Positions 7,914-34,851 of a stretch of DNA of 64,000 nucleotides are shown piece by piece. The DNA is taken from assembly GCA_028288925.1 (NCBI GenBank), contig JAQGHG010000005.1, forward strand, positions 15,991-79,990, in the 5' to 3' direction. The translations under genes and the position numbers were made by a program. A model generated the notes under the pieces. It worked only from the letters and a program-made list of their open reading frames with translations. It was not told the DNA's origin and searched no databases. Every line of letters begins with the position of its first letter. Position 1 is the stretch's first letter. The DNA comes from Patescibacteria group bacterium (GTDB taxonomy: Bacteria; Patescibacteriota; Saccharimonadia; UBA4664).

Positions 7914-8435
7914 TTATTTTGCCAGAATGAGTTTATGAGCGATGGATTCGAGCGTGCTCGTGGGTACGTTGGCGCTGGTGTTCATGAGTATCCAGGTTTT
8001 GTTGCTGCCGGTGGTAAGGCTGGCGATTTGCTGGATTTGAGAGCCGTCTTGGGCCTGGCCGATGTAGCCTTGGCCCGCCGGGGCGGCGAGTTTGGTGGAA
8101 TGCTGGAGGTTTTTGTGGAAGGTGTCGAGTTTGAGCTTTTTGCCGTTGGGCGGCGCTTGCTGGCTGATGTAGATGGTCGGTTTATCATCGCTGCGGATTT
8201 CGAAGATGGTAATCCCCTTTTCGGGTTGACTGACGGATCCGTAATTTATGGAATAGCTTTTGGGCAGCTTGCCGGGGTAGTACAGCGGGATATCGCTGGC
8301 ATTGATAATGCGGGACGCGAAGGGACTGTGGGGCTGAGCATGCCGGTATACGAGTATTATGCCGGCTGCCGCGCTGAGTGCAATTATGGCTGCGATAGTT
8401 AAGCTAATCTTGAGATTGAGCCGGGGCCATGTCAT
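7914..8435 (-). CDS. N-terminally membrane-anchored hypothetical protein (paralog of 4326-4862)
   Basis: TM (ISLTIAAIIALSAAAGIILVY) plus an extracytoplasmic domain similar to 4326-4862. Its start overlaps the stop of the upstream GH130 gene by 4 nt. Confidence 0.45.
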   Translation of the reverse strand: MTWPRLNLKISLTIAAIIALSAAAGIILVYRHAQPHSPFASRIINASDIPLYYPGKLPKSYSINYGSVSQPEKGITIFEIRSDDKPTIYISQQAPPNGKKLKLDTFHKNLQHSTKLAAPAGQGYIGQAQDGSQIQQIASLTTGSNKTWILMNTSANVPTSTLESIAHKLILAK

Positions 8436-9424
8436 GGGGTGAGGTTTCCGAGAAGTTCATCTAGCTTACAAGTAGCAAGACAAACGCCTTGATCACCGGA
8501 GCCGTAGTAGACGTAGAGGTCTTCGCCTACGATGACCGCGCCGGAGGGGAAGGTTACATGGTCGACGACGCCTTCGAGCTCTTCGGGGGTTTCGGGCCGC
8601 AGGATGGGCTCGGACGTGGTGGCGAGGACTTTCCAGGGCTCGTTGAGGTCGAGGAGGGCGGCGTTTATTTGCCATTCGCGATGGTCTTCGGTGTTTGAGG
8701 GGCAGTAAATGAAGAGCCAGCCGTCCTTGGTGCGGATGGGCGGCGCTCCGAGCTCCGGACCGCGCTGGACGCCGGTGACATGGCCGTCGTGCTCGATGGC
8801 GGTTGGTTTGAGTACGGCGTACTCATCGTAATGCTCGAGGGTATTGGCGATGAGGCCGGCCGGCGGTTTTTTGAGCTCGGCTACAGAGCCGAATCTTGCG
8901 TGCATAATGGTGGATTCGGGCCGGTCAGCGCGCCAGGTGTAGTACCAAATGTATTGACCGTTGACCGGCTCGGGCAGGAGCGCGGCGGCCTTGGAGCGCG
9001 AGCCGTGTGGGCCGACGACGCCATGTTTGGTAACGGTTTTGAAGTCGGTGGTAGTGGCGAGGGCGACGCGGACGTTCTTGATGTTGTCGTGCCACTCGAC
9101 GGCGGTGTAGTAAATGAAGTACTCCTCCCCTATCTTGGTGACGCGGGGGTCTTCGCAGCCGAGACCTTGTTCGTAGGGCTGGTCTGGTGTGATGAGCGGC
9201 TCAGACCGGCGTTCGAAGTGGATACCGTCGGTGCTTTCGGCATACCCGATTGACGAGATGTATTGACCGCTGACGCTGGTTTTGACGTCGTTTGTGGCCC
9301 GGTACAGCATGCGGAATAGCCCGTCTTCGTAAAAGACGTTAGCATTGAAGACCGATCCAGCCTCCCAGGTGTTTGCGGGGTTCTTTTGGAGAATGGGGTT
9401 TTGGGGGTGGCGGATGAGTCGCAT
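8432..9424 (-). CDS. GH130 family protein (beta-mannoside phosphorylase/DUF377-like), single domain, cytoplasmic
   Basis: GCEDPRV signature and a five-bladed propeller-like pattern (WLFIY, YVYYGSGD). No signal peptide. 330 aa. Confidence 0.8.
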   Translation of the reverse strand: MRLIRHPQNPILQKNPANTWEAGSVFNANVFYEDGLFRMLYRATNDVKTSVSGQYISSIGYAESTDGIHFERRSEPLITPDQPYEQGLGCEDPRVTKIGEEYFIYYTAVEWHDNIKNVRVALATTTDFKTVTKHGVVGPHGSRSKAAALLPEPVNGQYIWYYTWRADRPESTIMHARFGSVAELKKPPAGLIANTLEHYDEYAVLKPTAIEHDGHVTGVQRGPELGAPPIRTKDGWLFIYCPSNTEDHREWQINAALLDLNEPWKVLATTSEPILRPETPEELEGVVDHVTFPSGAVIVGEDLYVYYGSGDQGVCLATCKLDELLGNLTP

Positions 9425-9442
9425 GGTTTTATGATACCAGAG

Positions 9443-11359
9443 CTAGCCGCGCAGGGCGCCTAGCAGGTCGCGCAGGCGCATGGTGGCTACGGCTACCACA
9501 TGGTCGGCGCCGCCGTAGTAGAGGTAAATGGTGTCGCCGCGCAGCACTTGGCCGCACGGGAAGACGACGTTGCCGATCCAGCCTTCGCGCTCCCAGGGCT
9601 CGACGGGCGTCATGATGGGCTGGCTGGCGCGGCCAAGCACTTTGGTGGGGTCTTTGCGGTCCAGGAGTACGGCGCCCAGGCAGTAACGGCCCTCGGCGGT
9701 GATGCCGTGATAGAAGAGGATCCAGCCGAGGGGTGTTTTGAGGGGCGGCCCGGCGATGCCGACTTTGCGGCTGTCCCACATGCCGCGCCGAGCGCCGAAG
9801 AGCTGGATGCAGCGGGTGAGTTTTTCTTTGCGGAAGTCGAGGGTGGTTACGTAGTCGGCGCAGACGTGGCCGTCGACCCGGTGCAGAACCATGTAGCGGC
9901 CGTGGATTTTCTCGGGGAAGATGCAGGCGTCTTTGTCGTCGACGCCATCTGGGCTGACGGTTTCGGGCATGGTCCAGGCATCGAAGCGGCGGGCTAGGAA
10001 GTCGGCGACGCTGATGGAGCTTTCGGCTACCTGCGGCGAGCTTACGCTGTCGAAGGCGGTGTAGGTGACGTGCAGGCGGTCGCCGATGCGCACGACGCGG
10101 GCGTCTTCGCAGCCGGAGTTGTCGGTGGGGCCGGCGTGTTTTTGCTCGAAGCCGACCCGGGGTACATAGATGGGCTCGGGCAATCGTTCGTCGATGTGGA
10201 CGCCGTCTCGTGAGGTGGCCAGGCCGATGACTGAAGTGTTTTCGGGGCCGACGGCGCGGTAGAGAATGTTGATCGTGCCGTCGATCTCGACGGCGGTGGG
10301 GTTGAGGACGTGGGCGGCTTCCCAGGGGTGGTCCGCGATGGGCTCGAGGATGGGATTTTCGGGCGGGCGCTGAACGTGCTGTTTAATACTCCCGTCGGCC
10401 GACATACTGGCCATAAGGGCCTTGAAGCTTAGGGCGGCGCGGCAGCTGGTGGTGTCGGTGCCGCCGTAGTAGACGGTGAGCCGGTCGCCGTGGCGCAGGG
10501 CGCCGCTCGGGAAGATGATGTTGGGCAGCCGGCCGTAGCGCTCGTAGCCTTCCTCGGGCACCATGAAGGGATAGATGGTGCGTTTGAGGACTTTGGTGGG
10601 GTCGTGCAGATCGAGCAGGGCGGCTTCGATGCCGAAGATTTTGTGGTCGGTGAAGTATTCTTGAATGTGTGAGTACAGTAGCAGCCAGCCGTCCTTGGTC
10701 CAGATGGGCGGCGCGCCGACTTCGACGTGATCGGTGTCGCCGCGGACGAGGTTGAGGGTGCGATCATCGAGGTGTTCGCGCCAGTTTTCCCAGTACTTGG
10801 GCGACCACATGTCTTCGGGCCGGTCGAATTCGGCGATGGCTATCTTGGAGGGCGGCCGGTCGGAGTCGACTGTCAGGATGGCGCGGAGTTTGCCGTTGAC
10901 GCGCTCGGGGAACAGCGCCATAGCCTTGGCGTTGAAGGGCGTGACGAGGTGCTTTTGGTCGATAGTCTTGAGGTCTTTGGAGGTGGCGACGGCGACTTTG
11001 ATGTTGTCGGGCCCAAACGGAAATCCGCCCAGCGCCGTATAGAAGATGTAGTAAGTGTCGCCGAGCTTGGTAACGCGCGGGTCTTCGCAGCCGAATTCAT
11101 CCCAGGGTTCGCTGGGTACGATGAGCTGCCGAGGCTCGCCAAACGTCTGTCCCCCATCCGTGCTGGAGGCGATGGCGACCGTGGAGAGCTCGACATCGTG
11201 GCCGTGGTAGAGCGCCGGATGGCTGGCGGCGCGGTAGATGAGGTGGAGGGTCTCGCCTTGCATGACCGGTGAGGGGTTGAAGGCCGCCTCGGCCAGCCAC
11301 GGCGTATTGGGGTCTGGGCTGATGAGCGGATTACGGGGGTCGCGGGTAACATTGAACAT
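9443..11359 (-). CDS. Tandem double GH130-domain protein
   Basis: 638 aa. Two complete GH130 units, each with its own signature (FGCEDPRVTKLGDTYYIFYTA and SGCEDARVVRIGDRLHVTYTAF) and a terminal YYGG(T/A)D motif. Confidence 0.8.
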   Translation of the reverse strand: MFNVTRDPRNPLISPDPNTPWLAEAAFNPSPVMQGETLHLIYRAASHPALYHGHDVELSTVAIASSTDGGQTFGEPRQLIVPSEPWDEFGCEDPRVTKLGDTYYIFYTALGGFPFGPDNIKVAVATSKDLKTIDQKHLVTPFNAKAMALFPERVNGKLRAILTVDSDRPPSKIAIAEFDRPEDMWSPKYWENWREHLDDRTLNLVRGDTDHVEVGAPPIWTKDGWLLLYSHIQEYFTDHKIFGIEAALLDLHDPTKVLKRTIYPFMVPEEGYERYGRLPNIIFPSGALRHGDRLTVYYGGTDTTSCRAALSFKALMASMSADGSIKQHVQRPPENPILEPIADHPWEAAHVLNPTAVEIDGTINILYRAVGPENTSVIGLATSRDGVHIDERLPEPIYVPRVGFEQKHAGPTDNSGCEDARVVRIGDRLHVTYTAFDSVSSPQVAESSISVADFLARRFDAWTMPETVSPDGVDDKDACIFPEKIHGRYMVLHRVDGHVCADYVTTLDFRKEKLTRCIQLFGARRGMWDSRKVGIAGPPLKTPLGWILFYHGITAEGRYCLGAVLLDRKDPTKVLGRASQPIMTPVEPWEREGWIGNVVFPCGQVLRGDTIYLYYGGADHVVAVATMRLRDLLGALRG

Positions 11360-11363
11360 AGTG

Positions 11364-13232
11364 TTATGCTACGTCGCCGGCCGAAGTGAGCACAAGGGCA
11401 TGGTCTTTGACGAGCGCGTCTAGGAAGGCGTCGACATTGGCGCGGGCGGCGGCTACCCGCTTGTCCCCGCCGCCGTAATACACGATGAGGTTTTCGCCCA
11501 GGACGACCGCGCCACAGGTGTAGACCACGCCGGGTTTGCCGTCGTTCTCGTACCATTCCTTGGGCTCGAGGATGGGAGCGTTGGTGCGGTAGAGAATTTT
11601 GGTGGGGTCGTCCAGATCGAGCAGCATGGCGCCGAGCTTGTATTTGCCGGGGTCAAACTTGTCGTTGGCGTGGTAAAACAGGAGCCAGCCCATGGCGGTC
11701 TTGATGGGCGGCGCGCCGGTGCCACGGACCCGGCTGTCCCAGTGGTCTTTGCGGCGGGGGTCGCCGTAGCCGCCACCGTGAGCCGGCGGCAGGCTGTCGA
11801 TGAAGGTTTTGCCGTCGAGGGCGTCGAGGCTGTCGACGTATTCGATGTGGATCTTGGGGCTGAGGCCGTGCAGAATGGCGTATTTGCCGTTTACTTTTTC
11901 CGGGAAGATCACCCAGTTTTTATTGGTCTCCTTGGGACGGGAAATCATGACGGATTTGCGCCAGTTCCATTTCTTGAGCTTAATGTTTTCAAGCGAGATT
12001 GAGGTAAGAGCGATGCGCATGTTGTCCCAGCCGCAAAAGGCGGTAAACGACATGTAGGCGTGGCCGTCGAGCACTACCGCCCGGGGGTCTTCGCAGCCGG
12101 CCCAGCCGCCGCCGGAGGGATGCTCGGCGAGGTTGTAGCCTTGTTCGGGGCGGATGTGTCCGGGGTCGGGCGTGCCGATGCCGTGGCTGGGGGTATATAC
12201 GGGGTGGCTCAGGCGGTCGTCAAAGTGGATGCCGTCGGCGCTGGAGGCGTAGCCGATGCGCGAGACGCCGTCGGGCCCCATGGCGCGGTAGAGCAAATGC
12301 ACCCGTCCGTCGCTCACAAAGGCGGCGGGGTTGAAGACCGCCTCGGATTCCCACTCGTAGGCGCTGGGCTCCATGATGGGATTGTGCATGGAGCGGTGGA
12401 GTTGGGTGCGGCGGCGGCCGCGGGCACGGACGGCGAAGGGATTAGGCAGTCGCAGGGTGATGAGCTTTTCGGTATTGCTGGTGAGATACACCACTATTTC
12501 GTGATCGGACACCACCGCGCCTAGACTGCGGGGCTGGTCTCTTTCGGCGGTAGAAAATTGGTGGAGCGGCTCGTCGGAACGCCAGAGGACGTGCTCGGGG
12601 TTGTCGGCGGCGCAGAGCAACACACCGATTGAGACGGTGGTCTGCTTGTGTTTGGTTTCCCGAGTCTCGTAAAGCACCACTATCCCCTGCTCGACGTGGG
12701 CGGTGGTGACGACCTGGAGGGTGTGGGCGTCGAAACGGTCTTTGCGCGGGGCGGCGACGGCGTGGCCGGTGTTGTGCCAAGCTACGAGGTTTTTGGAGAA
12801 GGCTACGTGCAGTTCCCGCTCGCCGTAGTACAGAACGTGCTGGCCGTTGTGCAGATACTCGGGGACCACCATACCGGCGCCGGTGAGGTGATGGTTAAAG
12901 GATGGGACGTTCCAGATATCGATCTCGTCGTCGGGGTCGCGAATCGCGATTCTCAACTCGGGCCGGCCCTCGTGCTCGATGGTGTAGGCCATGATGCTTT
13001 CGTCTAGCACATGCGAAACGCGCACATTTTGGATGTGCGCGAGGTGTTCTTTGCGCCCGAGTGGCAGCACGATGGACGGGCCGGCTGATTCCAGACGAAA
13101 AGTCTGATCATCCCCGTGACCCAGTACGAGGCGGTAGGTTTCCGAATACTTTTCGCGACCGATAAGACCTACGGAGTCATTGTCGCGAAATATGCCTAGC
13201 GGATGAGTTCGTCGTAATGCGGAATGACTCAA
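11364..13232 (-). CDS. Double-propeller protein: degenerate GH130-like N-domain + canonical GH130 C-domain
   Basis: The C-terminal half has GCEDPRAVVLDGHAYMSFTAF and LIVYYGGGD. The N-terminal half is propeller-like but lacks the GCEDPR signature. 622 aa. Confidence 0.7.
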   Translation of the reverse strand: MSHSALRRTHPLGIFRDNDSVGLIGREKYSETYRLVLGHGDDQTFRLESAGPSIVLPLGRKEHLAHIQNVRVSHVLDESIMAYTIEHEGRPELRIAIRDPDDEIDIWNVPSFNHHLTGAGMVVPEYLHNGQHVLYYGERELHVAFSKNLVAWHNTGHAVAAPRKDRFDAHTLQVVTTAHVEQGIVVLYETRETKHKQTTVSIGVLLCAADNPEHVLWRSDEPLHQFSTAERDQPRSLGAVVSDHEIVVYLTSNTEKLITLRLPNPFAVRARGRRRTQLHRSMHNPIMEPSAYEWESEAVFNPAAFVSDGRVHLLYRAMGPDGVSRIGYASSADGIHFDDRLSHPVYTPSHGIGTPDPGHIRPEQGYNLAEHPSGGGWAGCEDPRAVVLDGHAYMSFTAFCGWDNMRIALTSISLENIKLKKWNWRKSVMISRPKETNKNWVIFPEKVNGKYAILHGLSPKIHIEYVDSLDALDGKTFIDSLPPAHGGGYGDPRRKDHWDSRVRGTGAPPIKTAMGWLLFYHANDKFDPGKYKLGAMLLDLDDPTKILYRTNAPILEPKEWYENDGKPGVVYTCGAVVLGENLIVYYGGGDKRVAAARANVDAFLDALVKDHALVLTSAGDVA

Positions 13233-23227: not shown

Positions 23228-23394
23228 GTCATTCCCTTTCTCATTAAAAAATCTCTCGGTGCTTCGCCAAGAGACAGTTCCAAGTGTTCCGGATATTCTA
23301 AAATCTGGATCGCCTCGGTAGCGCATTAAGCTCTTTGCGGAGCAGCTACTGTCTTTGGAGAACTTAGTTATTTTAGCTTAATGGGCTGTGGGCG
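23228..23394 (-). promoter_or_regulatory. Putative rplJ (L10) mRNA leader region
   Basis: A 167-nt untranslated gap directly upstream of rplJ. The assignment is positional only; no structure was verified. Confidence 0.3.
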
Positions 23395-24461: not shown

Positions 24462-25745
24462 TTAGGCGGCTGGGCTTTCGGTGTAGTACCAGTTGAGCTG
24501 CTTTGCTAGGGCTGTGGAACGCTCTTTCGCGGCGTCTTCGGTGGTACGGCTGTGGGCTAAGTCGCCGATGAGGCGGCCGAGTTCCTTGGCTTGCGGTACG
24601 GTCAGGCCGCGGCTGGCGAGGGCGGCGGTACCGAGACGGATTCCGCTGGGCCGCCAGGCGGACTTGGTGTCGAAGGGTATCATGTTGCGATTAGTAATGA
24701 TACCGGCGCGCTCCAATAGGCGCTGGAATTCGAGGCTGTCGGTTTGCTCGGGGAGTTTGAGGAGGCAGAGGTGGTTCTGGGTGGGGCTGACAACGGTGAG
24801 TCCGGCTTCGGCCGCGCCCTGCTCCAACGCCTGGCAGGTGTCTAGGACGGCTTGGGAGTATTCGCGGAAGGTGCGCCCGTCTGGATACTGGTCTTCGCCG
24901 AGGATTTCGAGCAGGGCCTGGCCGGTAGCGGCAATCTGGTGTAGGTGTGGGCCGCCCGAAGTGCCGGGGAAGATGGTTTTGTTGATGGTGGGCATGTGCT
25001 GGGTCTTGGCGAAGAGCATGGCGCTGCGTGGTCCGCGGAAGGTCTTGTGCGTGGTCATGGAGACGAAGTCGGCGCCGGCGTCTCCCGCCTGGAACGGCGT
25101 GTCGTGCAGACCGGCCGCGACCAAGCCGTTGATGTGGGCGATGTCGGCTAGTACCAGGGCGCCGGCTTCGTGGGCCCACTTGGCCATTTGGGCAAATTCG
25201 TATTTACGCGGATAGGCCGAGAAACCCAAGATTACCAGTTTTGGCTTGTGCTCGCGTAATTTGGCGCGGTAATCATCTTGGTCGATCTCGAAGGTTCCGG
25301 GCGCGGTTTCGGTGACATCGTAGTTTACGAGCTTGAAAAATTTGAGAAAGTTGGAGGTGGCGTGCATGTGGGAGAGGTGTCCACCATTGGCCAGATTGAG
25401 GCTCATGATGGTGTCGCCGGCCTCGAGCATGGCCAGGAAGACCATGGCGTTGGCGGGTGAGCCGGACAGCACCTGGACGTTGACGCCGTATTCGCCGGTT
25501 TTATCGAAGACCTCAAGCGCCTTTTGTTGGACGTAGGTTTCCATCTCGTCGGCGTGAATGTTTCCGGCGTAATAGCGCTTGCCGGGGGTGCCTTCGGCGT
25601 ATTTGTTCATCCAGACGCTGCCGAGGAGTTGGAGTACCTTGGGTGAGGGATAGTTTTCGGAGGCTATGAGGTTGAGCGTATCGCGTTGTTTGGCGAATTC
25701 TTGGGCGGTGAGCTGAAAAAGCTTGTTCTGGTTGGTTTGAACCAT
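24462..25745 (-). CDS. glyA: Serine hydroxymethyltransferase
   Basis: Full-length SHMT (427 aa) with a PLP-lysine region (...SMTTHKTFRGPR...). AAGGAG SD lies 8 nt upstream. Confidence 0.9.
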   Translation of the reverse strand: MVQTNQNKLFQLTAQEFAKQRDTLNLIASENYPSPKVLQLLGSVWMNKYAEGTPGKRYYAGNIHADEMETYVQQKALEVFDKTGEYGVNVQVLSGSPANAMVFLAMLEAGDTIMSLNLANGGHLSHMHATSNFLKFFKLVNYDVTETAPGTFEIDQDDYRAKLREHKPKLVILGFSAYPRKYEFAQMAKWAHEAGALVLADIAHINGLVAAGLHDTPFQAGDAGADFVSMTTHKTFRGPRSAMLFAKTQHMPTINKTIFPGTSGGPHLHQIAATGQALLEILGEDQYPDGRTFREYSQAVLDTCQALEQGAAEAGLTVVSPTQNHLCLLKLPEQTDSLEFQRLLERAGIITNRNMIPFDTKSAWRPSGIRLGTAALASRGLTVPQAKELGRLIGDLAHSRTTEDAAKERSTALAKQLNWYYTESPAA

Positions 25746-25811
25746 TATGGAATCTCCTTAGTCGCGGTCAGTAATGATCGCGGTTAGCGGCCGGTCATAC
25801 GTTGCTGCTTT

Positions 25812-25826
25812 TTAAGGGTGTTTCAT
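25812..25826 (-). promoter_or_regulatory. Mini-ORF MKHP-stop (ATG AAA CAC CCT TAA), copy 1, 66 nt upstream of glyA
   Basis: Reverse complement of ttaagggtgtttcat. The same tetrapeptide mini-ORF recurs at 26491-26505 and 30034-30048. Confidence 0.45.
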
Positions 25827-25886
25827 GGCGTAAAAATTGAGCTTAATCAGTATAGGGTTTAAGTGTACCAGATTGTTAGTGAGGTC

Positions 25887-26438
25887 CTAATTGGCGGGGC
25901 TTTGCATGAGCCGGAATAGTTCATCACGCGCTGCGGGTTTGACTTTGTACTCACCTATTAAGCATGATGTCGTGGTTTGAACGCCGGATTTCTGGATACC
26001 TCTCATCTCCATGCAGAGGTGCCGGGCTGTCAGCTCTACTGCTACGCCTTTTGGGCTGAGCTCATTCTCGAGGAAGCGTGCAGTTTGGGTTGTGATCCTC
26101 TCCTGGTTTTGAAGTCTGCGGCTAAAGTGGTCGAGCGTGCGGGCGAGTTTTGAGAGCCCGACAATCTTGGTTGACGGGATGTAGGCTATGGTTCCATGTC
26201 CGAAGAATGGGACCAGATGGTGCTCGCAGATGCTATAGAAAGGTATGCCGGCCTGAACGATCATTTCGTCGTACCCGTCGCTCTCGAATGTGGTCATCGT
26301 GAAAGGCTTGGGTTGCATAAACTCGGTGAGGAATTTTTCGTGGCGTCTGGGTGTGTTTCGGAGCCCTTCGCGGCTAGGCTCACTATCAATATGGCCAATG
26401 AGATGCCGGATGGCTTCCTCGGTAGTAATGGTAGTCAT
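25887..26438 (-). CDS. folE: GTP cyclohydrolase I
   Basis: 183 aa with the FolE core (...SICEHHLVPFFGHGTIAYIP...). Confidence 0.9.
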   Translation of the reverse strand: MTTITTEEAIRHLIGHIDSEPSREGLRNTPRRHEKFLTEFMQPKPFTMTTFESDGYDEMIVQAGIPFYSICEHHLVPFFGHGTIAYIPSTKIVGLSKLARTLDHFSRRLQNQERITTQTARFLENELSPKGVAVELTARHLCMEMRGIQKSGVQTTTSCLIGEYKVKPAARDELFRLMQSPAN

Positions 26439-26490
26439 AAAACTATCCTTGCTTGATTAAGCGGTATGGGTGACTTGAGTTGAGAGAGGT

Positions 26491-26505
26491 TTATGGGTGC
26501 TTCAT
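26491..26505 (-). promoter_or_regulatory. Mini-ORF MKHP-stop (ATG AAG CAC CCA TAA), copy 2, 52 nt upstream of folE and 6 nt after the folC stop codon
   Basis: Reverse complement of ttatgggtgcttcat. A second CACCCATA lies 19 nt further downstream on the gene strand. Confidence 0.45.
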
Positions 26506-26511
26506 GGCTGG

Positions 26512-27771
26512 TTACTTACGGATAACTTCGTTAAGCATGGGTCGGATTTGGCGTATTAGGTAAATAGACCCGGTGATGAGCAGAGTTTTTTGGGGTTGGG
26601 CGAGGAAGCTTCGCAGCGCTTGGCTGGTTGTTGAGAATTCCCGTGTATAGGTAACTCCGGCTTGCTTGGCGGCTTCAGCGATAACATGCGCCGGTAATGA
26701 TTCTTTGTACTGATCCTGCTGGTCTGAAAATTCCGTGATGAACAATTTGGAGCATATCGGTGCCAGGGCGGCGATTCGTTGAGCGAGGACATACTCTGGG
26801 ACACTCACGAAGCCCATAAGGGTGGGCAGCGGCGCGAGGCCTTGATTGGCCAGTTCGACGCCCAAGGCCGCTAGCTTTTGAGGATTGTGAGCCCCATCGA
26901 GGATGACTGTTTTGTCGCCGATATGATATCTCTCGAAGCGGCCGGGGGGTACCTGCGAGCTTACTTCCTGGATGTCGGCGGCGGTCGTAGCGGGAAGATT
27001 ATCCCGGCCGGCTAGATGGTGGTAAGCCGTGAGTGCCAGAGCCAGATTGCGTTGCTGAAACGATACGAGGCCAGGCAGGGGCGCGGCCCGTGTGGCGTAT
27101 TCTATGGTAGCCCCTTGCTCTTTCGCGCGTTGGCTGAACATACGGGCTACTCGCGGCGGTTGAGGTGAAGTAACAAGGTGATTGCCGGCCTGGATGATGC
27201 CGGCTTTTTGAGCGGCGATTTCTTCGATTGAGGTCCCCAAGATCTCGGTGTGCTCAAGGCCGATGTCGCAGATGACACAGAGTTTGTCCTCGCGGTTCAC
27301 GACATTTGAACCGTCGAGGAGTCCACCTAGGCCGGTTTCAATAATCGCGTAATCGACGCCTTCCTTGGCGAAGAACCAGTACGCGAACGCCATGAGCAGT
27401 TCGTAGTAGGTCGGTGCGATCTTCGTCGCCGCTACCTGGTGCATAAACAGGTCGAGCTCTTCGGCGAACCGGGCGTCGCTGAGCGGCACGCCATCGAGCT
27501 GGATTCGCTCGTTGATGGCGACGATGTGAGGCGAGATGGTCAAGCCGGTTCGTTTGCCGGCTTTCTGGAGGAGGCCTCTTATGAAGTACGCCGTGGAGGT
27601 CTTTCCGGAAGTTCCCGCTATATGTATGACCTTGAGCTGATTTTGTGGATTACCCAGCAACCCTAACAGTGTGCGCATGCGGTCGAGCGTGTAGTTTTCC
27701 TTCAGGCTAGTCTTCGGCACGAAGGAGCGTAAGGTCGCGTTGATGTCATAGTGAGTAGGTATATTTGTCAT
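26512..27771 (-). CDS. folC: Folylpolyglutamate synthase / dihydrofolate synthase (Mur ligase family)
   Basis: P-loop GTSGKTSTAYFIRGLL and Mur-ligase central and C-terminal domains. 419 aa. Confidence 0.8.
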   Translation of the reverse strand: MTNIPTHYDINATLRSFVPKTSLKENYTLDRMRTLLGLLGNPQNQLKVIHIAGTSGKTSTAYFIRGLLQKAGKRTGLTISPHIVAINERIQLDGVPLSDARFAEELDLFMHQVAATKIAPTYYELLMAFAYWFFAKEGVDYAIIETGLGGLLDGSNVVNREDKLCVICDIGLEHTEILGTSIEEIAAQKAGIIQAGNHLVTSPQPPRVARMFSQRAKEQGATIEYATRAAPLPGLVSFQQRNLALALTAYHHLAGRDNLPATTAADIQEVSSQVPPGRFERYHIGDKTVILDGAHNPQKLAALGVELANQGLAPLPTLMGFVSVPEYVLAQRIAALAPICSKLFITEFSDQQDQYKESLPAHVIAEAAKQAGVTYTREFSTTSQALRSFLAQPQKTLLITGSIYLIRQIRPMLNEVIRK

Positions 27772-28598
27772 GACAGCGGCTCTTTATCGGTGGATTGAAG
27801 CGCCTCAACAATGGCGCGGGTCTGGACCGCGGCCTTCACGTCGTGGGCACGGATGATCCCGGCCCCGTGTAGCATGGCGTAAGATTGGACGACGGCCGTG
27901 GCGACGCGGCGTTCTTCGAGCGGCGCGGCGACTCCATTTGTAGCTAGGGCCTTGCCCAGAAAACTTTTCTGCGACGCGCCGTAGAGGACTTTGTAGCCAA
28001 GTTTGGCGAAGGTTCTCATTTCGCGGGTGAGCTCGAAGCTTTGAGCGGCGGTCTTGGCGAACCCGATCCCTGGGTCGATGATGATGTTGCCGGGAGACAC
28101 CCCTAGAGTCTCCAAGTCTTGGGCACGGTTAAGCAGAAAGTTTTTTACCTCACCGACAACCCCGCCGGGATAGTGAGTCAGTCGCGACATGGTCGTGGGG
28201 GTTCCTCTGGAATGCATGATTACGACCCGGACACCGCTGTGGGCGACGAGCTGACGCATCATCAAGTCTTCGCAGCCATGAACGTCGTTGATGAGGCTGG
28301 CTCCAGCCTTGAGGGCGGCCGCCGCTACCAGAGGCTTAAATGTATCAATCGATATCGGAATATTGGTGAGGTCGCGGGCCAACATTATGGCCGGAATCAC
28401 CCGGCTCTGTTCGTCCGCGGCGCTAATGACCTCTGCTCCAGGACGGGTACTCTGGCCGCCGATGTCCAGTATATCGGCCCCCTCGGCGATGGCGGCCTCA
28501 ACTCGCTGACGCAGCGCTGTTTCGTTGCCGATGTTGACGCCGTCTTTGTTGAATGAATCTGGCGAAGTATTGATGATCGCCATAATTTGAATTGACAT
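27768..28598 (-). CDS. folP: Dihydropteroate synthase
   Basis: Pterin-binding TIM barrel (MAIINTSPDSF...DIGGQSTRPGA...). 276 aa. Overlaps folC by 4 nt. Confidence 0.85.
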   Translation of the reverse strand: MSIQIMAIINTSPDSFNKDGVNIGNETALRQRVEAAIAEGADILDIGGQSTRPGAEVISAADEQSRVIPAIMLARDLTNIPISIDTFKPLVAAAALKAGASLINDVHGCEDLMMRQLVAHSGVRVVIMHSRGTPTTMSRLTHYPGGVVGEVKNFLLNRAQDLETLGVSPGNIIIDPGIGFAKTAAQSFELTREMRTFAKLGYKVLYGASQKSFLGKALATNGVAAPLEERRVATAVVQSYAMLHGAGIIRAHDVKAAVQTRAIVEALQSTDKEPLS

Positions 28599-28601
28599 GG
28601 T

Positions 28602-29459
28602 TCACTCCGCGCTTTCGGATGGTTGGCTCGCGAAACAAGCTTGGACGGCATTATCATAGGTGCGCTGAACAAGTGGTTCGAAGGCTTCGAAAAGTGCCAG
28701 CTTGCTAAGGGAAAACGCGGCGTTAACTTCCATGACTTTTAGTCCCTCAGTTGTCGTTACGATGTCGACGGCCGCGAAATGGAGCTGGATCGCAGTCAGT
28801 GTTGCCTGGGCTAGTTTGATGAGCTCGCTTTTTAAACGTCCATCGGCGACTTCGGACGGTAGGGCGCCAAATTGCAGATTGTGCCGCCACTCCCCTCCGC
28901 CTGGTGGCCGTACTTTCCGGAAGAGCAGTTGTGGCTGCTGGTTCAGTAGGACGATTCGGTATTCGTCGATAATATCCTCGAAGGGCGAGGCTGCGATGGT
29001 CCGATAGTGCGAGGACATGGTTTCCAAAATGGCCTGCAGCTCCTTGGGTGTAGTGGCTTTGTAGACGTCGGCGCCGCCGCCCCTGTCGCAGGGTTTTAAT
29101 ACAAGCGGCAACTGGGCGTTGCTCAACGTGGCTTGGATGGTTGCCTCCACCGTTTGCTGAGGAGGAAACCTAATTAACCAGTGGGGAATCGTTGGTATCT
29201 GAGCATCTTTCAGAACATGATAGGTCGCGACTTTGTCACGGGCGATCCCCGCTGAAGCCGCGTTATTGAGCGGAAAGAGAAGCGAGGAGATGTGGGTTAC
29301 GCGGCCGTTTTTGGTAAGACGGCATATCCAGTAGTCCGAGAGCCAATCAACCGTTACTTGCTGGCGGCGACAAGCCGTCTCTATGTGACCAACGAAGGTC
29401 TCACGGGTTTTCCATTCGCTAAGCTTAAACAAGCTATGCGCTGTATCGGTGGAGTGCAT
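28602..29459 (-). CDS. ATP-grasp family ligase (RimK/GshB-like) embedded in the folate operon
   Basis: ATP-grasp motifs LVLKPCDRGGGADVY and MEVNAAFS. Probable start is the internal ATG at 29459 (MHSTDTA...), which avoids overlap with the upstream gene; the track ORF runs to 29528. Confidence 0.6.
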   Translation of the reverse strand: MHSTDTAHSLFKLSEWKTRETFVGHIETACRRQQVTVDWLSDYWICRLTKNGRVTHISSLLFPLNNAASAGIARDKVATYHVLKDAQIPTIPHWLIRFPPQQTVEATIQATLSNAQLPLVLKPCDRGGGADVYKATTPKELQAILETMSSHYRTIAASPFEDIIDEYRIVLLNQQPQLLFRKVRPPGGGEWRHNLQFGALPSEVADGRLKSELIKLAQATLTAIQLHFAAVDIVTTTEGLKVMEVNAAFSLSKLALFEAFEPLVQRTYDNAVQACFASQPSESAE

Positions 29460-29472
29460 ATTTGAAAAAGAC

Positions 29473-29988
29473 CTAGTTAGTGGTTGTAATGATGTAGTGA
29501 TTGACGACCGTGCCATCGGAGACTTCAACTTGGCTGTCGAGAAGCTCGAGTTTGACGTCCATATTCAGATCGAACAGCGGCATACCCCGGCCGAATAGTA
29601 CGGGCTGAATGGAAAGATAGAGCTCGGTGATGAGGCCGGCTTCCATGTATTGGTTGTAGATTTGCAGACCGCCGGCGACTATGACGCTCTTGGCGCCTTC
29701 GTTTTCGAGGCGTTCTAGCAGCTGGGCCGGTGAGTCACTGGTGTATTCGACTCCTTCGACGGTTTCGTGGTCTTTGCGTGTGAGCACGATGAGACGGCGG
29801 CCGGGCAGGGCTTTCCCGAAGGTGGCGAAGGTGTTGTAGCCCATCACGACGATGCCGGCTTGTTTGGTGACGCGGGTAAAGAACCGTTTGTCACTAGATG
29901 TGGTCCAGGTGGTAGACAGGTGCTCCCGGTCGCGGGCGATGTAGCCATCGGCCGTTTGGGTCGCTAAAAGTATGATTTTCATGATCAT
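29473..29988 (-). CDS. Dihydrofolate reductase-like protein (RibD_C / DHFR family)
   Basis: KIILLATQTADGYIARD...GYNTF...LIVLTR...VIVAGGLQIYNQYM matches the RibD C-terminal / DHFR-like reductase pattern. 171 aa. Confidence 0.65.
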   Translation of the reverse strand: MIMKIILLATQTADGYIARDREHLSTTWTTSSDKRFFTRVTKQAGIVVMGYNTFATFGKALPGRRLIVLTRKDHETVEGVEYTSDSPAQLLERLENEGAKSVIVAGGLQIYNQYMEAGLITELYLSIQPVLFGRGMPLFDLNMDVKLELLDSQVEVSDGTVVNHYIITTTN

Positions 29989-30033
29989 CCCTTGGTTTTT
30001 AAGTAGATGCGGGTACTTAGGGAGATGATTGGT

Positions 30034-30048
30034 CTATGGGTGCTTCAT
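30034..30048 (-). promoter_or_regulatory. Mini-ORF MKHP-stop (ATG AAG CAC CCA TAG), copy 3, 45 nt upstream of the DHFR-like gene that heads the folate operon
   Basis: Reverse complement of ctatgggtgcttcat. A candidate -10 TATACT (30079-30074, minus strand) lies upstream of it. Confidence 0.45.
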
Positions 30049-30088
30049 AGTTAGTGGCCTGTCTTTCCTCATTAGTATAGCAAATTCT

Positions 30089-30116
30089 TTACAGTTGGCC
30101 CCTCCCCCGCCATAAT
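30089..30116 (+). promoter_or_regulatory. Candidate promoter for small acidic ORF
   Basis: TTACAG (30089-30094), 16-nt spacer, CATAAT (30111-30116). Confidence 0.35.
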
Positions 30117-30142
30117 TTGGTTAATCTAATTGGACATACGCT

Positions 30143-30304
30143 ATGGAAGAACCCAAGAACCCGCAAGGAACTACCCCCGAAGATGCCACGCAGGCCGATG
30201 GCTACTACGGTGAGGATGAGCTAGAGATGGACGAGCTGGATCTGAGCTTTTTGGACGAAGACGACGAGGCTGACGCGCCGAAGAAGTCTGATAAGGCCGC
30301 GTAG
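30143..30304 (+). CDS. Small acidic protein, 53 aa (not in ORF track; below length cutoff)
   Basis: ATG 30143 to TAG 30304 encodes MEEPKNPQGTTPEDATQADGYYGEDELEMDELDLSFLDEDDEADAPKKSDKAA. A promoter-like element lies upstream, and the ORF occupies an otherwise empty 360-nt gap. Confidence 0.4.
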   Translation: MEEPKNPQGTTPEDATQADGYYGEDELEMDELDLSFLDEDDEADAPKKSDKAA

Positions 30305-33628: not shown

Positions 33629-34471
33629 TTAGAGAATTACCAAGTCGGTCTTGATGTGCGGGTGCGGGTCGTAGCCCTCGAGCACGAAGTTTTCTTCTTT
33701 GAAGTCGTCGATGGTTTTGACGTCGCCGACGATTTTGAGCTTGGGGAAGGGTCGGGGCTTGCGGTGGAGCTGCTCCTTGGCGGCTTCGATGTGGTTGCGG
33801 TAGAGGTGGGCGTTGCCGGCCGAGATGATGAGCTCGCGCGGCTCGGCGCCCACCAGGTGCGCCACCATATACAGCAGCATGGCGTACTGGGCGATGTTGA
33901 AGGGCGCGCCTAGGAAGACGTCCCACGAGCGCTGGTAGAGATGCAGGCGGAGTTTGCCGTCGGTCAGATCAAATTGGAACATGGTGTGGCACGGGGGCAG
34001 GCGAATATCGCCGTAGTCGTCGGGATTCCAGCGCTTGTCGCCGAGCTCGCCGGCATTCCATGCGCTTACGATGATGCCCTTGGAGTCCGGATTGGTTTTG
34101 AGCTGATCAATGGCCCAGGCTAGCTGGTCAAATTCGGTGCCGTTGGGCCGTAGCCAGTGCCGCCATTGCACGCCGTAGATGCGGCCGAGGTCGTTGGAGC
34201 CTTCGTGTAGGAAGCCGTCCCAGTAGCGGATTTTGTGCTCGTGGAGGTAGGTGACGTCGGAACTGCCGGAGATGAACCAGAGCAGCTCGTGGAGCAGAAT
34301 TTTAAACGGCATTTTCTTGGTGGTAAGCAGCGGGAAGCCGTAGCGCAGGTCGAAGTGGACCTGGGCGCCGAAGACCGACTTGAGTGGCCAAATGCCGCGT
34401 GACGGCTTGCTGCGGCCGTCCTTGAGGATGGTGGCCATGAGTTTGAGGTATTCGTATTCTGGATGTTTCAT
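33629..34471 (-). CDS. thyA: Thymidylate synthase
   Basis: ThyA hallmarks: LPPCHTMFQFDL...RSWDVFLGAPFNIAQYAML. 280 aa. Confidence 0.9.
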   Translation of the reverse strand: MKHPEYEYLKLMATILKDGRSKPSRGIWPLKSVFGAQVHFDLRYGFPLLTTKKMPFKILLHELLWFISGSSDVTYLHEHKIRYWDGFLHEGSNDLGRIYGVQWRHWLRPNGTEFDQLAWAIDQLKTNPDSKGIIVSAWNAGELGDKRWNPDDYGDIRLPPCHTMFQFDLTDGKLRLHLYQRSWDVFLGAPFNIAQYAMLLYMVAHLVGAEPRELIISAGNAHLYRNHIEAAKEQLHRKPRPFPKLKIVGDVKTIDDFKEENFVLEGYDPHPHIKTDLVIL

Positions 34472-34851
34472 GCGGTTCCTTCGTAGCGCACGGTGGCGCC
34501 GAGCGTTTTATTGTCTAATTCAATGTAGGCGAGCTGCGTTATCTGCGGCGCGAGCTTTTGGTAGGTCCAGCGTGCTACCTGCTCAAAGGTGGGCCGGAAT
34601 TCAAACAGCTCGGTCCATTTTTGGCTGGAGAGGTGGCTAGCTGTGGCAGCGAGTATATCATCCAGGCTATCGGTGTCTACGAACCAACCTCGTTCCCCCA
34701 TCTGGTCATCGTCGAAGCGAATGGCTGCCGTCAGGGTGATGCTGTAGCCGTCTACGGGCTGGAGTGGGGCTAGCTTTTTAGCGTCGCGAATGGGTGATTT
34801 AAGTCCCTGGAGAGCTTTAAATTCTTTTCGTAGCGTTACAACATAACTCAT
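34468..34851 (-). CDS. PTPS/QueD (T-fold)-like protein lacking the canonical zinc-binding His/Cys residues
   Basis: Similar to 6-pyruvoyl-tetrahydropterin synthase at GWFVDTDSLDDIL (compare GMVxDFxDLK) and at PTFEQVARW (compare PTxENLAxW). However AAIRF replaces AAHRL, there is no HGH triad and the protein has no Cys. Overlaps thyA by 4 nt. Confidence 0.45.
   Translation of the reverse strand: MSYVVTLRKEFKALQGLKSPIRDAKKLAPLQPVDGYSITLTAAIRFDDDQMGERGWFVDTDSLDDILAATASHLSSQKWTELFEFRPTFEQVARWTYQKLAPQITQLAYIELDNKTLGATVRYEGTA

Follow-up and report, generated by a model that had tools for sequence, protein, structure and literature searches.

We describe a four-codon open reading frame (mini-ORF) that recurs in front of folate and one-carbon genes in a metagenome-assembled genome of the Saccharimonadales (Patescibacteria/Candidate Phyla Radiation, CPR). 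The DNA analyzed is a stretch of 64,000 nt (the window), and positions are window coordinates unless a relative is named. Three copies, all read on the minus strand, precede glyA (serine hydroxymethyltransferase, SHMT), folE (GTP cyclohydrolase I) and an operon that opens with a dihydrofolate reductase (DHFR)-like gene. Judged from its conservation in related genomes, the element is very probably translated and regulatory, a kind of leader not described before. The three copies are:

25812..25826, minus strand: mini-ORF 1, ATGAAACACCCTTAA, read as ATG AAA CAC CCT TAA (MKHP-stop); the glyA start lies 66 nt downstream
26491..26505, minus strand: mini-ORF 2, ATGAAGCACCCATAA, read as ATG AAG CAC CCA TAA (MKHP-stop); the folE start lies 52 nt downstream
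30034..30048, minus strand: mini-ORF 3, ATGAAGCACCCATAG, read as ATG AAG CAC CCA TAG (MKHP-stop); 51 nt separate it from the likely DHFR start at 29982, or 45 nt from the ATG at 29988

An initial annotation of this DNA had reported three Met-Lys-His-Pro-stop sequences 45-66 nt before the main start codons, and all three are present on the minus strand as written, at distances of 66, 52 and 45-51 nt. It had also placed the second copy 6 nt past the folC stop, which is the spacing that we find, and its gene names (glyA, folE and a folA-like operon) are upheld by Pfam matches. A degenerate version of the pattern, run over the whole window, returned three exact and two two-mismatch matches, with 0.81 expected at ≤2 mismatches. 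The exact pattern (12 fixed and two twofold positions) is expected by our arithmetic about 0.002 times per window, and recurrence of three exact copies by chance is excluded. Short ATG-started ORFs are frequent in the leaders of this window (about 22 of ≤8 codons in 3.6 kb); MKHP alone recurs. Leaders 2 and 3 align with each other over their whole length, and thus the leader module was probably duplicated within this genome.

Relatives carrying the element were reached via SHMT similarity, SHMT relatives at 70-89% identity being numerous. A mini-ORF of the same form precedes glyA in L165 and L168 (SHMT 89 and 85% identical, respectively; ATG AAG CAT CCC TAA in both), in L172/L173 (84%; ATG AAG CAT CCG TAA), in L169 (84%; ATG AGA CAC CCA TAA, which shares an ATGA overlap with the stop of the HD_3 gene before it) and in L174 (78%; ATG AAG CAC CCG TAA, 4 nt past the stop of the preceding gene). 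The copy in L166, ATG TTT CAC CCT TAG (MFHP-stop), stands before a DHFR-glyA operon. With the three window copies these make up a comparison set of nine distinct copies, which we regard as independent.

We aligned the nine leaders on the mini-ORF ATG and tabulated them column by column. Positions 1-3, 7-8, 10-11 and 13-14 are invariant. Position 9 is only C or T (His, CAC/CAT), position 12 takes all four bases (Pro, CCT/CCA/CCC/CCG) and position 15 is only A or G (stop, TAA/TAG). Codon 2 is AAA, AAG, AGA or TTT (Lys, Arg or Phe), and the flanks vary at every position, -8 to -1 on one side and +16 to +24 on the other. The mini-ORF is four codons long in all nine copies, each of which ends CCN-TAA or CCN-TAG and so places Pro directly before the stop. 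Among ORFs of ≤10 codons ending in His-Pro-stop, 395 kb of Saccharimonadales DNA yielded these leaders and one unrelated site, with no length variants of the leader ORF besides the four-codon form. Because conservation runs exactly from ATG to stop, with wobble-only change and randomized flanks, the pattern reads as a coding signature, bounded by the start and stop codons and tolerating what the genetic code tolerates. We consider it probable on these grounds that the element is a functional, translated regulatory mini-ORF.

Within 2.0 Mb of DNA fetched and searched on both strands, the association with folate genes is exclusive: ATG-X-His-Pro-stop occurs only before DHFR, folE or glyA, 35-73 nt from the main start. 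The GTG- or TTG-started pattern has three matches in the same DNA, at unrelated loci and with no downstream gene. No mini-ORF is present at glyA genes packed into a tight operon (L167, L170/L171), in a lineage with 73% identical SHMT (L175/L176) or in the folE-bearing Saccharimonadales L001-L006. Following folE through genome and metagenome collections led to best relatives of 60-64% identity with short leaders, other synteny and no mini-ORF; many of the metagenome folE matches are probably marine or phage genes. Via FolC, the nearest other protein is 57% identical, and L161-L164 have neither the mini-ORF nor a conserved context. The element is restricted to a sub-clade, with the glyA leader as its ancestral and most widespread site. 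In some other Saccharimonadales a TATACT or TATAAT box lies just 6-14 nt from the start codon, before folE in L002, L004 and L005 and before glyA in L175, which suggests that the folE and glyA mRNAs of those organisms are leaderless or near-leaderless.

No RNA family or shared fold accounts for the conservation. At the gathering threshold, Rfam returned only the ribosomal protein L10 leader in the whole window, and a search of 25600-30300 against Rfam 15 with E up to 10 gave nothing credible, only two chance matches to eukaryotic or archaeal families on the other strand. The fold energies of the three leaders are no better than those of dinucleotide shuffles (z = -0.54 for glyA, -0.17 and +0.06 for the other two), RNAalifold on the nine leaders gave zero conserved pairs, and no terminator-like hairpin was found on the gene strand of the leaders. 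A tetrahydrofolate (THF)-type or ZTP-type riboswitch or other shared fold was rejected on the lack of an Rfam match, the shuffle-level folds and the lack of conserved pairs; the initial annotation had given a THF-riboswitch-like structure as an example of a fold that might be conserved in place of the peptide. Its claim that selection acts on a translated peptide rather than on RNA sequence is strongly supported by the orthologous leaders, wobble-only change, randomized flanks, folate-gene exclusivity and lack of a conserved fold. The peptide itself, given there as MKHP, holds for the window copies; across relatives it is better written M-[K/R/F]-H-P. Taken as a whole, that earlier interpretation is partly supported.

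Further features of the leaders in the window are:

30074..30079, minus strand: TATACT, a -10-like box of the extended -10 type (TGcTATACT), 25 nt upstream of mini-ORF 3
25849..25867, minus strand: -10-like boxes TACACT (25867-25862) and TATACT (25854-25849), 22-35 nt upstream of mini-ORF 1
25746..25811, minus strand: glyA leader spacer, whose minimum-energy fold pairs the Pro-stop CCUUA with the glyA Shine-Dalgarno (SD) sequence UAAGG
26439..26490, minus strand: folE leader spacer, rich in C and poor in G (C16 and G3 among the 40 nt counted)
29989..30033, minus strand: DHFR leader spacer, likewise rich in C and poor in G (C14 and G2)

In L165 and L168, TACACT stands 26-27 nt before the mini-ORF, and boxes of the TAYACT type precede folE and glyA in relatives. 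These boxes are putative promoters, and where the mini-ORF opens a transcription unit the mRNA would begin about 20 nt before it. Across the nine leaders, 43-73 nt separate the mini-ORF from the main start. A 12-codon version of copy 3, from an in-frame ATG at 30072, was rejected: that ATG is 2 nt past the -10 box and probably untranscribed. Three of the nine copies begin 0-6 nt after the stop of the upstream gene (including the ATGA overlap in L169), an arrangement that looks typical of termination-reinitiation.

Close to the mini-ORF stop, several leaders contain sequence complementary to the SD or start region of the main gene. The anti-SD segment AUCAUCUCCCU, which begins 5 nt past the stop of mini-ORF 3, pairs with the DHFR ribosome-binding site AGGGAUGAU and is the best SD partner among all segments of the DHFR leader (-9.8 kcal/mol, shuffle p = 0.10). 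At the folE start, GUUUUAUG shows partial complementarity to CAUAAAC, the 3' end of mini-ORF 2 (-7.4 kcal/mol for the duplex, p = 0.07 against shuffles). Among relatives, UCUCCG, 1 nt past the stop in L174, pairs perfectly with CGGAGA (-16 kcal/mol), and UCCCUA, inside the His-Pro-stop codons of L165, pairs with UAGGGA. Summed over the nine leaders, pairing of the stop-proximal segment with the main SD/start region amounts to -69.2 kcal/mol, vs. -48.7 ± 5.6 kcal/mol for shuffles (p ~0.001); it is clear in L174, the window DHFR leader, L165 and the window glyA leader. The motif as a general anti-SD sequence mimicking the 16S 3' end was rejected, with good SD pairing found in some leaders only.

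Three glyA leaders of relatives share another stretch, U-rich and followed by GAUUG-N2-3-A(A/U)A-GGR just before the SD (approximately 885-905 in L165, 5496-5516 in L168 and 9974-9994 in L172). A short GC hairpin precedes it in L168 (GACCG...CGGUC) and L172 (ACCGG...CCGGU). The stretch, which was not found in the glyA leader of the window, may be a second conserved leader element.

We lean toward a mechanism in which a translated, cis-acting fMet-X-His-Pro-stop leader controls the downstream thymidylate-cycle and folate genes. A ribosome would start on the mini-ORF without an SD, whether near the mRNA 5' end (at a distance of about 20 nt) or through re-initiation just past the preceding stop, make the tetrapeptide and reach the stop codon with peptidyl-tRNA-Pro in the P site, a setting known for slow release. 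The dwelling ribosome would cover the 3' end of the mini-ORF and about 12 nt beyond. In several leaders the covered stretch is complementary to the main SD/start region, so that the main ribosome-binding site could be freed and the gene translated. Unmasking of the SD in this manner is the best available model for the mechanism, and one that we hold tentatively.

That His-Pro and the length of four codons are so strictly kept suggests specific tuning of the release step itself. Arrest peptides that act at termination recurrently end in Pro, which in TnaC is also where the effect takes place (PMC8450073). Candidates for the tuning would be a small molecule at the peptidyl-transferase center or upper tunnel, formylation of the nearby N-terminal Met, which sharpens an idea of the initial annotation, or release-factor methylation. 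Methylation of the release-factor GGQ motif reportedly matters most for C-terminal Pro or Gly, and the formyl group could lie within reach of the peptidyl-transferase center because the chain has only four residues. That the mini-ORF senses one-carbon status is quite possible, if not quite probable. The narrower proposal, in which a ribosome holding fMet-X-His-Pro-tRNA at the stop is itself the one-carbon sensor, via formylation, a folate-related ligand or S-adenosylmethionine-dependent GGQ methylation, with the MKHPE start of thyA (described below) perhaps tuned likewise, strikes us as unlikely. No fmt, folD, fhs or rho gene was seen among the window genes. The data show the conservation pattern, its codon-level character, its exclusive association with these genes and the lack of a conserved RNA fold; that the mini-ORF is translated, that ribosomes stall on it, that the SD is unmasked and what signal is read are inferences.

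Several observations weigh against this mechanism. Seven of the nine mini-ORFs have no SD and eight of the nine main genes have one, a lack tempered by the 41% of genes in this window that are SD-poor. When the best case, L174, is left out, the pairing signal falls to p = 0.027 by shuffling and 0.10 by cross-leader permutation, and L169, L166 and L172 show little pairing. The nine copies come from about seven lineages. In L166 the mini-ORF may not be transcribed with DHFR, since it overlaps the start codon of a divergent gene and a -10-like box lies 3' of it. A four-residue nascent chain is, to our knowledge, far below any known metabolite-sensing arrest peptide. Finally, if translation of the mini-ORF activates the main gene, loss of formyl-Met initiation would lower folate-gene expression, the wrong direction for simple feedback.

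Some of the same features would also fit constitutive ribosome delivery, in which the mini-ORF captures ribosomes and passes them on by re-initiation or SD unmasking at a fixed level, with no sensing. The 0-6 nt spacing from an upstream stop in three of nine copies, the anti-SD complementarity and the lack of any ligand-binding structure found in the leaders agree with this idea. However, plain coupling needs neither an invariant His-Pro nor a fixed length of four codons, and it leaves unexplained why the same peptide occurs only at DHFR, folE and glyA and at none of about 30 other window leaders. We regard constitutive delivery as distinctly unlikely.

Equally doubtful, in our judgment, is a role in Rho-dependent termination, whereby a ribosome waiting at the Pro-stop keeps Rho from loading onto a spacer rich in C and poor in G and averts premature termination, in the manner of the tna operon. 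In the window, the spacers of folE and DHFR do resemble a rut site (C16/G3 and C14/G2), the Pro-stop layout parallels TnaC (PMC8450073), and NusG is encoded in the window. The seven other spacers lack this composition, however (that of L168, for example, has C18/G15), and lengths of 43-73 nt are short for Rho loading; no rho gene was seen among the window genes and the leaders contain no intrinsic terminator.

The remaining alternatives involve thyA, one of the two-mismatch matches to the pattern (at 34471) being the start of this gene:

33629..34471, minus strand: thyA, Pfam PF00303, E = 2.6e-95; begins ATG AAA CAT CCA GAA (M-K-H-P-E)

The thyA ATG overlaps the stop of an upstream PTPS-like (6-pyruvoyl-tetrahydropterin synthase) gene as ATGA, and the ThyA N-termini of relatives read MTKHPE, MATHPE or MAHPEY. 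As GAA to TAA is a single substitution, the mini-ORF may derive from a thyA 5' stub, or the thyA start may be a functional relative of it. Its retention with silent-only change points to a present function. The PTPS-like gene (34468-34851, minus strand; Pfam E = 7.5e-07) is translationally coupled to thyA, and no mini-ORF was found in the 84-nt leader of the PTPS-thyA unit. The PTPS-like protein may take the place of FolB in making pterins, and folK was not seen among the window genes.

We think it very improbable that the 15 nt act untranslated as an RNA or DNA operator, for example for autoregulation by ThyA, DHFR or SHMT or for a transcription factor of a thymidylate regulon. Autoregulatory mRNA binding by ThyA, DHFR or SHMT is known from other organisms, and since ATGAAACATCC is also present at the thyA start, one recognition sequence could unite thyA, DHFR, folE and glyA; the lack of an SD before most mini-ORFs would fit as well. 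Against this, the variable sites are the wobble sites and carry the bases that the code allows (Y, N and R), conservation begins at the ATG and ends at the stop, and codon 2 is wholly replaceable, from AAG to TTT. At thyA, moreover, the sequence encodes an HPE that is also found at the ThyA N-termini of relatives and may reflect constraint on the protein. An operator or palindrome was rejected as well on the structure of the 15-mer, which has no dyad symmetry.

Scarcely credible is the notion that the copies are non-functional relics, decayed thyA 5' stubs from a rearranged ancestral thyA-DHFR-glyA operon: thyA begins MKHPE here, one substitution (GAA to TAA) from the mini-ORF, and thyA-DHFR-glyA operons exist in L167 and L168, but amid randomized neighbors the 15 nt have changed only silently across lineages down to 78% SHMT identity, the mini-ORF is still there in L168, where ThyA is of the MKQYL type, and the module was probably duplicated to folE within this genome, so that decay may account for the origin of the element and not for its maintenance.

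In its proposed working, the element is closest to a combination of TnaC and of the SD unmasking of erm/cat leaders, and it is a member of neither family. In TnaC, the leader peptide of the tryptophanase operon in Escherichia coli, release of peptidyl-tRNA-Pro is inhibited at the stop, and the stalled ribosome alters the fate of the downstream message (PMC8450073). Like TnaC, all nine copies are upstream ORFs with a Pro-stop end. However, TnaC has 24 residues, of which the conserved Trp12 and Asp16 form a tryptophan pocket in the exit tunnel, while the peptide here always has four residues and no pocket. TnaC also uses UGA with RF2 and acts via Rho, whereas the stops here are TAA or TAG and the likeliest output would be SD unmasking; the genes controlled belong to folate and thymidylate metabolism, and the sequence is unrelated to that of TnaC.

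In the erm, cat and cmlA leaders, including the MRLR peptide of the ErmDL type, a ribosome arrested on a chain of few residues melts a helix that sequesters the SD and thereby turns the downstream gene on. The very short leader ORF and, as proposed here, the SD-unmasking logic are shared with these systems. Theirs is an elongation arrest with a ribosome-bound antibiotic, whereas here a termination event at metabolic genes is proposed, and nothing in the gene context points to a function in antibiotic resistance. The THF-I, THF-II (folE motif) and ZTP riboswitches likewise act in cis from the 5' leaders of one-carbon genes, folE, folC and glyA among them, and so occupy in other bacteria the niche that this element has here, but they are structured aptamers, whereas these leaders have no aptamer and a codon-like conservation. 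Attenuators such as trpL, hisL and pheL also govern a biosynthetic operon through translation of a short leader ORF; they rely on runs of regulatory codons and on terminator/antiterminator hairpins, whereas the window copies have one Lys, one His and one Pro codon each and no terminator.

Riboswitches (THF, ZTP) and regulatory proteins are known to act on folate and one-carbon genes. Searches of the searchable literature turned up no leader-peptide control of these genes, neither an MKHP leader system, of which the initial annotation was likewise not aware, nor a folate leader peptide. A strictly conserved four-codon ORF would rank among the smallest cis-regulatory coding elements, and would show that a chain too short for the exit tunnel proper can face strong selection, with a bearing on termination at Pro-stop. 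Were it a sensor, no shorter metabolite-responsive arrest peptide would be known, and it would be the first sensor of the thymidylate/folate cycle to act in translation. Gene regulation in the Saccharimonadales, as members of the CPR, is almost unexplored. The thymidylate cycle (ThyA, DHFR and SHMT) is among the few biosynthetic modules that these organisms retain, and it may be tied to host dependence. The signature ATG-NNN-CAY-CCN-TAR, ≤100 nt upstream of glyA, folA or folE, is searchable.

The genes behind the three leaders are:

24462..25745, minus strand: glyA, Pfam PF00464, E = 4.6e-108; behind leader 1
25887..26438, minus strand: folE, Pfam PF01227, E = 2.5e-58; behind leader 2
26512..29988, minus strand: operon of the DHFR-like gene, a RimK-like ATP-grasp gene, folP and folC (Pfam DHFR_1/RibD_C, RimK, Pterin_bind and Mur ligase domains); behind leader 3
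29473-29988, minus strand: the DHFR-like gene, with 29982 as the more likely start

The folC product matches a protein named folylpolyglutamate synthase, and the RimK-like ATP-grasp protein of the operon might be a glutamate ligase. DHFR lies directly beside glyA in syntenic relatives (9483-11266 in L166). The gene order of L166, which is ancestral-looking, is GT4 glycosyltransferase, small acidic ORF, DHFR, glyA, HD_3 and L10/L12. In the window, DHFR and glyA are separated by an insert of the RimK-like ATP-grasp gene, folP, folC and folE (26512-29528, minus strand), which looks like an acquired module for de novo folate synthesis.

Divergent from the DHFR leader and upstream of the GT4 glycosyltransferase gene is a small, very acidic ORF of 53 aa (30143-30304, plus strand; MEEPKNPQ...DEDDEADAPKKSDKAA). 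Homologs of 40-60 aa occupy the same position in L166, L169, L172 and L174, and a longer frame that overlaps the ORF matched no Pfam family. The L10 leader detected in the window (Rfam RF00557, 54.4 bits; 23237-23376, minus strand) lies upstream of rplJ-rplL and is a known cis-regulator kept in this CPR genome. Elsewhere in the window, three genes for GH130 (beta-1,4-mannooligosaccharide phosphorylase) stand in a row (8432-13232, minus strand), beside glycosyltransferase and PMT_2 genes.

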